From the NCBI RefSeq assembly GCF_024223415.1, contig NZ_CP100500.1: a DNA stretch of 64,000 nucleotides; one strand, 5' to 3'. The number at the start of each line of letters is the position of its first letter. The stretch's first letter is position 1. The translations under genes and the position numbers were made by a program. This DNA comes from Escherichia coli (GTDB taxonomy: Bacteria; Pseudomonadota; Gammaproteobacteria; Enterobacterales; Enterobacteriaceae). This document shows, piece after piece, positions 56,845-63,593 of this stretch. The notes under the pieces were generated by a model that saw only the letters and a list, made by a program, of their open reading frames with translations, was not told where the DNA came from and made no database searches.

Positions 56845-57156
56845 ATGACAATGATAAAAAAACTTCCATTAACCATGGCGGTTATCGCCGCGTTTTTTCC
56901 GCTTACCTCTGTAATGGCGCAAGAATTTACTCAGGAACAGATCGACGCCATCGTCGCCAAAGCCGTTGATAAAGCGCTGGCCGAGCAAATTGACGCCTTG
57001 AAAGCCGCCGCCCGTGAATGCGGTCCGTTACCCGATGAGCCGTTTATTCAGATGGCGTTTCTTTCTCTGCCAGTGATCCCCGCGCTGAAACTAACCAGTC
57101 AGGGGCTATTTGATGGCGAGAAGTTTGCCTTCACCACGCTGGAAGTCACGGAATGA
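56845..57156 (+). CDS. Small ORF with porin-like signal peptide and N-terminus (possible truncated porin paralogue)
   Basis: First ~50 aa ([47 protein letters not shown]) parallel the N-terminus of the porin at 62214, then diverge. Confidence 0.4.
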
Positions 57157-57388
57157 AAAAAAGACCGTATTAGCTGATTTACGGAAAATATGTACTCCAC
57201 AAGCGTCAATATCAGACGAGGCCTGGGAAAAGATAATGTTGTCTGATGAAAGTAATCAGCAGCACATCCGTGAGGCTATTGTGGCGATGGAACGCAATAA
57301 CCAGAACAATTACTGGGAAGCGTTAGGCAAGGTTGAATGCCCGGATATGTAGACGTGAAGCTGCAGCTTCACGTCATACATTTAGCAC

Positions 57389-58345
57389 TTAACGTGAACG
57401 TACATCGGGAATAATTAAATCACCGCGCAGAACATATGAACCCAGCATCGTCTGCGTCTTATCGTTAAGCCAACTGACTATGCGGGCGGCCATTTCGTCC
57501 AGCGAATATTCTATCGCCGGAATGGTCGGTATCCCCGGAAGATGAACAGTACCCGCCAGACTAAATACCATAATGTCCTCAGGAACAGATTTATTAAACG
57601 CCTGCAATTGCGGTATCACCCGCTGCGCTTGCTGTTCATCAGCAACTAATAACGCATTAAAGTTCAGTGTTGAGGCGTTATTTAGCAGCTCCTGCAAAGC
57701 CACTGAGGAAGAGATTGCTTCCATAAAAACCAGATTACGGTTAAAGGGAAGAAAGTTTTTCTCCAGCGCGTGTTTATAGCCCAGTAAGACCTGGTCAGAA
57801 AATCCCATACCGTGTGGGTGGATGAGGGCGATTTGGCGTCTGTTCTGACTTATCAGATAGTTACAAGCGGTTTCAGTCGCGAATGTGTGATCGAACTGAA
57901 TACTGTTAACATCATTACCCGTCTCAAGGCAGTCCACCAGTATCACGTTTTCCTGATGAATATTCAGTGGGAAACGCGCACCAATAATCAGTACGTCATC
58001 ACACAAACCACAGCTCAGCTCATCAAGGGCGTTCTTTACCTCGGCTTTATTGCTGGCGAAGCGAAGAAGTAGATGTTTTTGATGCTGGCTGAGATGTTTT
58101 TCCAGAGCGTAAAGATAACCGGTGGTCTGATTAATGTTTTCCTGAGCACAAATTACACCGATACAGCCCGTAGATTGCGTCAGCAGTGACTGCGCAATGA
58201 CATTGGGACGATAGTTTAGCTCTTCGACGGCTTTCAATACCGCGAGACGGCTGGCTTCTTTAACACCACGCGATCCGCTCAACACCCGAGAAACCGTCGC
58301 TTTTGAAACGCCAGCCAAACGCGATACATCATTGATAGTAGACAT
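57389..58345 (-). CDS. LacI-family transcriptional regulator
   Basis: HTH INDVSRLAGVSKATVSRVL; divergent from the cellobiose-type PTS operon. Confidence 0.85.
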   Translation of the reverse strand: MSTINDVSRLAGVSKATVSRVLSGSRGVKEASRLAVLKAVEELNYRPNVIAQSLLTQSTGCIGVICAQENINQTTGYLYALEKHLSQHQKHLLLRFASNKAEVKNALDELSCGLCDDVLIIGARFPLNIHQENVILVDCLETGNDVNSIQFDHTFATETACNYLISQNRRQIALIHPHGMGFSDQVLLGYKHALEKNFLPFNRNLVFMEAISSSVALQELLNNASTLNFNALLVADEQQAQRVIPQLQAFNKSVPEDIMVFSLAGTVHLPGIPTIPAIEYSLDEMAARIVSWLNDKTQTMLGSYVLRGDLIIPDVRSR

Positions 58346-58442
58346 CATTCTCCCCTGACAGAGCGGCCCTGGCTCCCACAATCCTGAATTCCTGTTGGCT
58401 TAAATATTAGCCGTTCGCAGTATAACTGTTTCCGTTTTCTAA

Positions 58443-61714: not shown

Positions 61715-62013
61715 TCGAACTAGAAGATGCGGTTATGGAAATAATCGTCAATGCCGGCCAGTCACGCAGCCTCTGTTTTGAAGCGTTACACGCGGCACGT
61801 GCCGGGAACTTTGATGAAGCCAAACAGCTGCTACGTGAAGCTGACGGTTATTCGCGTCAGGCTCACCATATGCAAACCAAATTGATCGAACAGGATGCTG
61901 GTGAGGCCCGACAGCCAATGACATTAATTATGGTACATGCACAGGATCATTTAATGACATCAATGCTGGCACGAGAATTAGCAGAAGAAATAATTCATCT
62001 TTATCAAAGATAA
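61711..62013 (+). CDS. PTS lactose/cellobiose-family EIIA (ChbA-like)
   Basis: 100-aa helical EIIA overlapping the GH1 stop by 4 bp. Confidence 0.85.
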   Translation: MIELEDAVMEIIVNAGQSRSLCFEALHAARAGNFDEAKQLLREADGYSRQAHHMQTKLIEQDAGEARQPMTLIMVHAQDHLMTSMLARELAEEIIHLYQR

Positions 62014-62213
62014 TTGATTAATGCTTATGAGGAACATCTATTTGATAAAATAAAACCTCTGCCTTACCCAAGAATAAAATAGATAAACCACCCTGTTTCG
62101 GTAGTTAAAAATAAGCCGAAACAGGCTGCTTATTATCATAAAACAAATTAATACACACCTTATATTTATTATGCCCAACGCATAATGAATTATAACGTGT
62201 GCGTGAGATAATT

Positions 62214-63593
62214 ATGAAAAAGATAAAAACACTTCCAGTTACCCTGGCGGTTATTGCCGCTTTGTACTCAATATCTGCCCAGGCTCAGGAATTTACTCAG
62301 GAACAAATAGACGCCATTGTGGCAAAAGCCGTCGATAAAGCATTAGCCGAAAGGCAAGAAAAAATGGATGCCGCGGCAGCGAAAAAAGTGGATGTGATTA
62401 ACGAACCGGAAAGTGCTGCGCAGTCTCCGGATATGGCAATTCCCTTTGGCGTGAAATTTAGTGGTTATGCCCGTTATGGGGCTCATTTTCAAAGCGGCGA
62501 TCAAAAATATGTTGCTGTAGACGGCTCCTATAATGGTGCATCTGCAATTGGTCGTCTGGGGAACGAAGGTAATGGCGGAGAGTTTCAGTTATCAAAAGCC
62601 TTCAAGAGCGATAACGGCGCAATCTGGGATGTCAATGTCATGATTGATCACTGGGGCGACGAAGTTAACCTGAAGAAGGCCTACGTCGGCGTCACCAACG
62701 TGCTGGAATCCAATCCCAACGCCTATATCTGGGCCGGCCGCGACTTCCACCAGCGTCCGCAACAGGGGATCAACGACTACTTCTGGATGAACCACGACGG
62801 CCAGGGCGCCGGGGTGAAGAACTTTGATATCGGCGGCGTGCAGTTCGACGTGGCGGCGGTGTCGCAGGTGAAATCCTGTAGCCCGGAAGTGATGGCCGAC
62901 GAGACCAACCCGTCGCGTATCACCTGTACCGGCAGCTCCGACACCGGGGACAACGGCCACTACGCGCTGACCACCAAAACCCACAACATCAAGGCCGGGC
63001 CGATCGACGTCGAGGTGTACGCCAACTACGGCTTTGACTCGAAGGCGGTGGACAGCGACGCGCGTCTCGAAGCCTGGCAGGGCGGCCTGGTGCTGAGCCA
63101 CACCAACGACAGCGGGGTGAACAAGGTGATCCTGCGCTACTCCGATAACTCGGATAACAGCGTCTACAACAAAACCGACGACCTGACCACGGTCTACGCC
63201 AGCTTCGAGGGCAGCCATAAGTTCACCCAGCAGGCGCAGGTGGAATATCTGCTGGCCTTCCACGACTACGACAACGGCAAAGATAATACCGACAACCGCA
63301 AAAACTACGGTGCCATCGTGCGGCCGATGTACTTCTGGAACGACGTGCACTCCACCTGGCTGGAAGCGGGCTACCAGCGCGTGGACTACGACCAGGGCGG
63401 GGATAACCACGGCTGGAAGCTGACGCTGTCGCAGAACATCGCCATCGGCATGGGGCCGGAGTTCCGTCCGATGCTGCGCTTCTACGTGACCGGCGGTCAG
63501 GTGGACAACGAGCATACCGCTAAGGTCAACGGCACCAAAGACCAGCAGCTGGATTCGCTGAACGTCGGCGGGATGTTTGAGGCGTGGTTCTGA
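62214..63593 (+). CDS. Carbohydrate-specific outer-membrane porin (LamB/BglH family)
   Basis: Signal peptide, N-terminal coiled-coil, C-terminal aromatic residue; GC content rises sharply after about 62650. Confidence 0.8.
   Translation: MKKIKTLPVTLAVIAALYSISAQAQEFTQEQIDAIVAKAVDKALAERQEKMDAAAAKKVDVINEPESAAQSPDMAIPFGVKFSGYARYGAHFQSGDQKYVAVDGSYNGASAIGRLGNEGNGGEFQLSKAFKSDNGAIWDVNVMIDHWGDEVNLKKAYVGVTNVLESNPNAYIWAGRDFHQRPQQGINDYFWMNHDGQGAGVKNFDIGGVQFDVAAVSQVKSCSPEVMADETNPSRITCTGSSDTGDNGHYALTTKTHNIKAGPIDVEVYANYGFDSKAVDSDARLEAWQGGLVLSHTNDSGVNKVILRYSDNSDNSVYNKTDDLTTVYASFEGSHKFTQQAQVEYLLAFHDYDNGKDNTDNRKNYGAIVRPMYFWNDVHSTWLEAGYQRVDYDQGGDNHGWKLTLSQNIAIGMGPEFRPMLRFYVTGGQVDNEHTAKVNGTKDQQLDSLNVGGMFEAWF

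Follow-up and report, generated by a model that had tools for sequence, protein, structure and literature searches.

The window, the whole stretch of 64,000 nucleotides of Escherichia coli DNA that was analysed (assembly GCF_024223415.1, contig NZ_CP100500.1), carries near its right-hand end two sequences that begin as outer-membrane carbohydrate porins: a small open reading frame (ORF) at 56845-57156, which we call the stub, and a full-length porin gene at 62214-63593, which we call the hybrid porin. Between them lies a cassette that encodes a phosphotransferase system (PTS) of the lactose/cellobiose family, a (phospho-)beta-glucosidase and a LacI-family regulator. Two intact porin genes from other genomes serve as references throughout: porinA, which ends the same cassette at the E. 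coli adeD-uhpT locus, and porinB, which stands in a Klebsiella-type island that has no cassette. The two porin sequences, the cassette and its joints are laid out as follows.

56845..56984, + strand: porinB nt 1-140, an orphan 5' remnant (signal peptide and start of the N-terminal extension), identical to porinB of genomes H8 and GF60
56975..56984, + strand: left joint, a 10-bp microhomology CGCTGGCCGA common to porinB nt 131-140 and adeD nt 1586-1595 (in-register three-way comparison)
56985..57156, + strand: adeD nt 1596-1767 (last 57 amino-acid codons and stop) in in-frame fusion (NCBIfam; identical to adeD of the cassette-bearing strain L009)
57146..57352, + strand: N-terminally truncated yicS fragment (NCBIfam YicS_fam, profile positions 25-96 of 96)
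57389..58345, - strand: LacI-family regulator (Pfam LacI and Peripla_BP_3; NCBIfam LacI family)
58637-58951, + strand: PTS IIB, lactose/cellobiose family (Pfam; NCBIfam set TIGR00853, TIGR00410, TIGR03356, TIGR00823 for 58637..62013)
58965-60296, + strand: PTS IIC (NCBIfam, Pfam)
60317-61714, + strand: GH1 (phospho-)beta-glucosidase (NCBIfam, Pfam)
61711-62013, + strand: PTS IIA (NCBIfam, Pfam)
62214..62663, + strand: porinA-derived 5' 450 nt of the chimeric porin, GC3 (G+C at third codon positions) 0.41; 97-100% identical to porinA and 67-78% to porinB in 60-nt windows
62664..62674, + strand: right joint, an 11-bp identity GTTAACCTGAA at which porinA switches to porinB in register and in frame (informative sites, alignment and GC3 change point)
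62675..63593, + strand: porinB-derived 3' 919 nt of the chimeric porin, GC3 0.88; essentially identical to H8 porinB and 58-88% identical to porinA

The composition of the hybrid porin gene changes abruptly within the coding sequence. GC3 is 0.413 in codons 1-150 (62/150 ending in G or C) and 0.877 in codons 151-459 (272/309; Fisher p = 5e-25), and the G+C content of codon positions 1 and 2 is steady near 0.45-0.55. An earlier reading of the DNA made without database searches (the sequence-only reading) had reported a G+C switch inside the gene near 62650, and the maximum-likelihood change point, at codon 151 (62667), bears this out. The GC3 of the 5' and 3' parts is 0.42 and 0.52 in porinA, 0.72 and 0.875 in porinB, and 0.41 and 0.877 in the hybrid; because porinA is low throughout and porinB high throughout, we conclude that the compositional step is the recombination joint. 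GC3 is 0.39-0.55 in the cassette genes and 0.69-0.78 in the flanking xylA, MFS and GH43 genes.

The three-way alignment of the window porin with porinA and porinB locates the joint directly. Nearly all informative sites are of porinA type up to 62663 and of porinB type from 62675; the off-type sites are few (62228, 62637 and 63200), and two more match neither parent. At the protein level the hybrid is 98.7% identical to porinA and 79.3% to porinB over the first 151 alignment columns, and 80.3% and 100% identical, respectively, over the rest. The parents share only 74% nucleotide and 80% amino acid identity with one another, and the 11-bp run at the joint is one of 17 exact porinA/porinB runs of at least 11 bp, with runs of up to 20 bp found elsewhere in the gene; the joint falls where the two genes are most conserved, at an identity of 0.78-0.88. 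The gene is a mosaic (recombinant) gene with two identified parents and a localised breakpoint. Its ORF is intact and full length, and encodes an in-frame protein of 459 residues that takes its N-terminal 150 residues, and its position after the cassette, from porinA and its C-terminal 309 residues from porinB. We had considered that the cassette porin might itself carry the GC step, and rejected this when the three-way alignment showed that a megablast match of ~96% extending to 63541 had averaged ~99% (true cassette) with ~75% (the porinB-derived part).

The left end of the insert lies inside the stub. The sequence-only reading held that the small ORF at 56845 begins like the downstream porin, at ~75% identity, and then diverges. 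The first half of this statement is correct: 56835-56985 is 77% identical to 62204-62351 over 150 nt (blastn, E = 1e-28), the stub protein and the downstream porin have signal-peptide-like starts and an identical 22-residue stretch in common, and the similarity ends at 56984/56985. What follows is not a diverged porin; it is the in-frame 3' end of adeD. Codons 1-47 of porinB continue in frame into the last 59 codons of adeD, giving an ORF of 103 codons whose stop codon is adeD's own, and stub residues 33-103 match adenine deaminase NF007457 at positions 518-588 of 588 (NCBIfam, E 3e-31). The microhomology at the joint is GC-rich, the sequences around it are unrelated between porinB and adeD, and the in-frame character of the fusion is due to chance. 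The 103-residue stub is most likely a non-functional remnant behind an orphaned porinB upstream region. In public records the stub protein (P0017) is named 'adenine deaminase [Escherichia coli]', although it is really a porin signal peptide followed by the AdeD C-terminus; with the hybrid deposited as an ordinary 'carbohydrate porin', the pair offers a lesson in annotation.

The net change is that porinB nt 141-453 (313 nt), missing from the window and present in H8 and GF60, has been replaced by ~5.68 kb running from adeD nt 1596 to porinA nt 450. The insert (56975-62663) holds only the adeD and yicS fragments, the LacI regulator, the PTS genes, the GH1 gene and the 5' end of the porin gene, with no transposase or integrase gene within it, and no direct or inverted repeat was found at its two ends; it does not have the structure of a transposon, insertion sequence (IS) or integrase insertion. 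A perfect palindrome of 24 bp, GACGTGAAGCTGCAGCTTCACGTC, can be read at 57352-57375, where the yicS fragment and the LacI-family gene converge. A scan for promoters and terminators gave no enrichment over shuffled sequences and was not used.

LamB-family porins are multi-copy in enterobacteria and the island that surrounds this one is compositionally patchy; it might therefore be argued that there was no recombination at all, that the two porins are old paralogues with a GC3 step arising from local composition or selection, or that the sequence is an assembly chimera. We consider this next to impossible, and in effect already refuted. Each half of the gene has a parent at ~99-100% identity with the switch confined to 11 bp, and the stub matches nt 1-140 of a gene that other strains carry intact, without a single difference, before it turns into adeD. 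The same structure occurs in at least eight independent NCBI and Logan assemblies from different sources, with the exact chimeric protein indexed in 33 blocks of the collection, and because the identical structure recurs in this way an assembly artefact is rejected. The cassette looks single-copy, since contigs of short-read assemblies cross all of it. GCA_900482235.1 is one of the genomes of the window type.

The cassette is present in 25 of 5,426 complete E. coli genomes, and in all four that were examined (4/4) it lies between adeD and uhpT, in the order adeD, yicS pseudogene, LacI-family regulator, PTS IIB, IIC, GH1, IIA, 459-residue porinA, DUF1198 and uhpT. The insert differs from one such locus, L009, at 35 of 5,689 positions (99.4% identity), and the G+C content of the cassette is E. 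coli-like. RefSeq annotates the same yicS pseudogene after adeD in cassette-bearing strains. Since fragments of both adeD and yicS were carried along, we place the origin of the insert at the E. coli adeD-uhpT locus. The remnant at 56975-57167 matches adeD in 5,408 of the 5,426 genomes; its identity is ~96% to the adeD of most E. coli and it is identical to the allele of the cassette-bearing strains, which suggests that the cassette and the adjoining end of adeD entered E. coli together from a diverged lineage. Neither the two parents together nor the recombinant is found among the complete genomes in the collection. The nearest relative of the cassette seen outside Escherichia is on Pantoea plasmids, which carry IIB-IIC-GH1-IIA at ~75% nucleotide identity.

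On both sides of the insert the window carries the features below.

51591-53270, - strand: island flank, GH43 gene, Klebsiella-type (NCBIfam/Pfam)
53329-54768, - strand: island flank, GPH/MFS_2 glycoside transporter gene, Klebsiella-type (NCBIfam/Pfam)
55195-56514, + strand: island flank, xylose isomerase gene xylA, Klebsiella-type (NCBIfam/Pfam)
56515..56844, + strand: intact porinB upstream (promoter) region (match to H8)
63594..64000, no strand assigned: island downstream of porinB, running into ybgA-like and DUF3833 genes beyond the window (blastn of 62204-64000 to H8 and GF60 reaches 64000)

Eleven complete E. coli genomes share the stretch 51000-56984 at 99.9-100% identity; in them HNH-GH43-MFS-xylA is followed by an intact 460-residue porinB, ybgA and DUF3833, with no cassette; 56000-56984 is 99.9% identical to the H8 sequence upstream of its intact porin. 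On the other side, 62675-64000 also matches the cassette-free islands in the two genomes that were fetched, H8 (L010) and GF60 (L011). The window and a contig identical to it (L001) are collinear with cassette-free genomes on both sides of the insert, and the alignment of L001 with GF60 reaches DUF3833. The island is found at leuX in H8 and adjoining cadC in GF60. K. pneumoniae has the genes in the same order, at ~96.6% nucleotide identity, and Klebsiella makes up most of the porinB protein cluster; the recipient block originated in the Klebsiella chromosome. The high-GC flanks had at first suggested a Klebsiella-like host. This was rejected: E. coli assemblies are the source of the contigs that are identical to the window, and it is the high-GC block that is foreign to an E. 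coli host.

Such loci are the comparison that the sequence-only reading had proposed for its central claim, namely that a lower-GC regulator/PTS/glucosidase cassette was inserted into a porin gene, leaving a chimera and a stub. The 11 cassette-free genomes do have xylA and then an intact porin, with flanks that match the window, and together with the clean switch at 62664-62674 they uphold the claim. A full-length gene at the position of 56845 in related genomes had been named as an observation that would speak against it; such a gene occurs only in genomes that have no cassette, and so favours insertion. The direction of transfer can be turned round in principle: the window would then represent the native adeD-uhpT locus, where the cassette was resident, and the high-GC xylA and ybgA flanks would be the later arrivals on either side of it. 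The cassette with its adeD remnant is indeed typical E. coli chromosomal DNA. However, adeD is represented by no more than its last 182 nt, neither adeQ nor uhpT occurs in the window or in the 10 kb downstream in contig L001, the two flanks are collinear with the islands at cadC and leuX, far from adeD, and the remainder of the window is island DNA. We judge the reverse direction very unlikely.

We conclude, with a probability of roughly 80%, that the locus is a recombination scar in an E. coli island, in which the adeD-uhpT cassette was spliced into the Klebsiella-derived porinB in two or more steps. That more than one step was needed follows from a second structural variant, seen in contigs L017, L018 and L043 (assemblies GCA_051128155.1, GCA_025832935.1 and GCA_022409875.1). 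The insert of these contigs is that of the window apart from 2-3 single-nucleotide polymorphisms (SNPs) over its 5,689 nt, and their porinA/porinB joint is the same. On the left side, adeD is present from about nt 596 and is joined to an inverted transketolase gene at window position 16834, with a microhomology of 15/16 (TGC.CGATAAACTGGA). Two of the assemblies also contain a contig with HNH-GH43-MFS-xylA-porinB 5' that shares its terminal k-mer with the chimera contig; on the strength of these same-assembly pairs, the two genomes most likely have an intact porinB as well as the hybrid. The second variant therefore has ~1 kb more of adeD and an intact porinB, whereas the window has an intact transketolase gene, and from these differing intact genes we conclude that neither variant derives simply from the other and that a common precursor is implied. 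As the hybrid joint is shared with the form that has the longer adeD, it is older than the stub joint, and the history comprises at least two steps. The split gene of the second variant is the transketolase N-subunit gene (tktN, window 16362-17192; L018 3380-3480), and its fusion gives an ORF of 479 residues that is called in L043.

The evidence for the second variant was restricted to same-assembly contig pairs. Klebsiella contigs also end at porinB nt 450-453 or 579-581, and from these ends a Klebsiella chimera or a recombination hot spot was entertained; both were rejected, as many Klebsiella carry a second, plasmid-borne porinB allele (~97%). The porinB alleles compared differ at nt 453, a third-codon position, and are identical over 100-plus nt past nt 504. 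Because of the plasmid allele and the polymorphism at nt 453, contigs that merely start at 62664 are not proof of a chimera.

For the window alone, the fewest events are required by a single step, in which a linear fragment from the native adeD-uhpT locus, with a pure porinA, entered by a homeologous crossover at the 11-bp identity and an illegitimate join at the 10-bp microhomology. The two joints and the two parents are exactly as this would require, and the crossover is placed in the most conserved patch of the genes. It fails to account for the second variant, which has the same joint, with an insert only 2-3 SNPs away, alongside a longer adeD, another left joint and an intact porinB, and which cannot derive from the window form; to rescue a single step, two identical 11-bp crossovers would have to have arisen independently. 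In addition, RecA-dependent exchange is poorly served by 11 bp of identity in genes that are 74% identical overall, and the gene has longer runs elsewhere. We therefore find the single step improbable. The same comparison qualifies the crossovers that had been proposed from the sequence, one homologous and one illegitimate: the illegitimate one is confirmed, at a 10-bp microhomology, while the 'homologous' one is really homeologous, since the genes that cross over at the 11-bp identity are only 74% identical as a whole.

In the two-step history that we favour, the recipient would have been the Klebsiella-derived HNH-GH43-MFS-xylA-porinB-ybgA block with an intact porinB (460 residues, high GC3), and the incoming DNA would have been adeD-yicS'-LacI regulator-PTS IIB-IIC-GH1-IIA-porinA from the accessory E. 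coli adeD-uhpT locus. The earlier of the two joints would be that between porinA and porinB, made by a homeologous or short-homology exchange in a genome where porinB remained intact and a longer part of adeD was retained. The stub joint would have formed later, either by homology-facilitated illegitimate recombination (HFIR) or by a microhomology-mediated deletion. By the first route, the perfect porinB homology, ~0.9-1.3 kb or more in length, would have allowed exchange of the right end at any point along it; the left end would have been joined at the 10-bp microhomology, with the loss of 313 nt of the recipient. By the second route, a deletion would have taken place between directly oriented copies in a precursor that carried both.

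We suggest that the last step is best described as resembling HFIR, with microhomology-mediated deletion as an equivalent alternative. HFIR is known from naturally competent species, and in E. coli it has been demonstrated during conjugation, at ~3.5e-10 per recipient and with recipient deletions of 245-1,385 bp (PMC3240628). The features expected of it are seen at this locus: the anchor lies in recipient homology, every 60-nt window from 62675 being essentially perfect to porinB; the other end lies at non-homologous DNA with the short microhomology CGCTGGCCGA; and recipient DNA, 313 nt here, was lost between the joints. As in HFIR, one end of the insert is homologous and the other illegitimate, and mobile-element genes are not involved. 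The locus differs from laboratory HFIR in that it belongs to a natural isolate, has a 5.7-kb insert and has a microhomology of 10 bp at the joint. The anchor would be the perfect porinB homology if there were two steps and only the homeologous 11-bp patch if there was one.

The number of short microhomologies brings a further explanation into consideration, that of one replication-based event (microhomology-mediated break-induced replication, MMBIR) with serial template switching, the joints having been sorted among lineages afterwards. Three joints around one cassette are at microhomologies of 10-16 bp (porinA/porinB, 11 bp; adeD/tktN, 15 of 16; porinB/adeD, 10 bp), one of them involves an inversion, and the 3' segment of porinB appears to be duplicated in some genomes; microhomology joints, inversion and duplication are listed for MMBIR-type rearrangements (PMC2621351). 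On the other hand, the two left joints are in different genomes and not together, tktN is kept intact in the window, and the copy-number structure is without direct evidence, the contigs being short. We regard such an event as quite improbable. The single-step and template-switching models are both less supported than the two-step history.

Of course, several points weigh against the two-step history in the form given here. No genome with the inferred common precursor was found, and the order of events rests on parsimony, that is, on the longer adeD and intact porinB of one variant set against the intact transketolase gene of the window. An ORF predicted for the reciprocal product of the inversion (214 residues, tktN 1-161 followed by the reverse-complement adeD tail, in two variants) is not on record, which is a weak point as it was sought by exact-match look-up only. 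Short-read contigs cannot show how the two copies of the porinB 3' part are arranged in the second variant, and the source of the DNA may have been either another cell or the same chromosome. Nor is a microhomology of 10 bp diagnostic of HFIR, because three of four (3/4) laboratory HFIR joints in E. coli were without microhomology (PMC3240628). What the sequences show directly is the parents, the joints, the microhomologies and that variants exist; the order of events, the enzymology and any function of the hybrid porin are inferred.

The hybrid porin has a Pfam LamB (PF02264) match, and its residues 80-432 match maltoporin (1MPR, 1AF6 and 8XCJ; phmmer, E 9e-16 to 6e-15). Its scores are well short of the NCBIfam maltoporin cut-offs (NF006860, 142.7 bits against 394; NF009061, 28.9 against 765), and we therefore treat it as a member of the LamB family and not as LamB. 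The porinA part encodes the signal peptide, the N-terminal extension of ~55 residues and the first ~70 residues of the barrel; the extension may be a coiled coil, as in ScrY. In the alignment with 1MPR, the part opposite the maltoporin WAGKRFYQR segment is derived from porinB, and so is the remainder of the barrel. In the LamB family, L3 is reported to influence sugar specificity (PMC3706956).

The gene order suggests that the hybrid now ends a beta-glucoside-type PTS operon, and that the xylA/GH43/MFS block would have lost its porin, with the porin upstream region driving only the stub. The hybrid protein persists, as its exact sequence is indexed in the 33 blocks mentioned above; the exact GH1 protein is indexed in 66. 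One could go further and propose that the hybrid is functional and has been selected, a barrel from a Klebsiella xyloside locus placed after a beta-glucoside PTS operon, and still headed by the porinA N-terminal region, providing new uptake specificity or regulation in a poultry- or environment-associated E. coli lineage, and that the three joints with 10-16 bp of microhomology, kept in natural variants that coexist, form a rare record from nature of a stepwise, short-homology (HFIR- or MMBIR-like) move of a whole operon over ~0.5 Mb into the island. We regard this as a speculative and rather unlikely extension.

As in the LamB, ScrY and BglH porins (PMC2646131, PMC3706956), there is a LamB domain, a barrel that aligns to maltoporin and an N-terminal extension of ~55 residues, and as with bglH in the E. 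coli bgl operon (PMC2646131), a porin gene ends a PTS operon of beta-glucoside type. With scores under the maltoporin cut-offs, the hybrid is neither LamB itself nor an equivalog, and its barrel is a hybrid of two family members. The cassette resembles E. coli chb, asc and bgl in having lactose/cellobiose-family IIB, IIC and IIA with a GH1 enzyme and a repressor; it differs from chb, cel and lac in that all its matches are under equivalog cut-offs and in being an accessory locus (25 of the 5,426 genomes) that includes its own porin. With other mosaic genes (PMC3241670, PMC4437187) the hybrid shares a single ORF from two diverged parents, a sharp breakpoint and a compositional step. In contrast to the usual mosaic genes, the parents are homologues from two operons and two genera (74% nucleotide identity) and not alleles of one locus, a whole operon was carried along, and a stub fused to an unrelated gene was left behind. 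Mosaic genes formed by homeologous or illegitimate recombination are a known kind of event; this natural case is resolved unusually well, and it is no new kind of system.

What makes the case useful is its unusual completeness as a natural instance of an operon relocated in E. coli by illegitimate or short-homology recombination, in which public genomes still yield the two parents, a second variant with the same hybrid joint and the exact base pairs of the two joints. It shows a route by which genes of two genera can yield an in-frame hybrid outer-membrane channel, which bears on porin specificity and on the diversity of phage and colicin receptors.

Some observations concern the surroundings of the locus. 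The window as a whole, including positions 1-56000, is a mosaic E. coli genomic island with CP4-like modules, an ascorbate-type PTS with a split transketolase, a YadA-like adhesin, a TonB receptor and several IS elements; the G+C content spans 0.34-0.62 in 1-kb windows, the island is collinear with that beside cadC in GF60, and there is no tRNA gene (attachment site) in the window. Plasmids of 108-164 kb in E. coli strains from mice carry the GH43-MFS pair at 85% identity. A porinB allele (~97% identical) is carried by ~120 large, mostly conjugative plasmids of Klebsiella, Raoultella, Enterobacter and E. coli, and in the one case fetched (L045, NZ_CP067312.1) it belongs to a lacIZY-porin-ybgA-DUF3833 module. 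The GC-rich stretch 3' of the porin stop codon is variable, with a replacement or deletion at 63629-63790 in some contigs (loci L030, L038, L032 and L034; 63628-63790), and the end of an IS3-family element abuts 63686 in two metagenome contigs.

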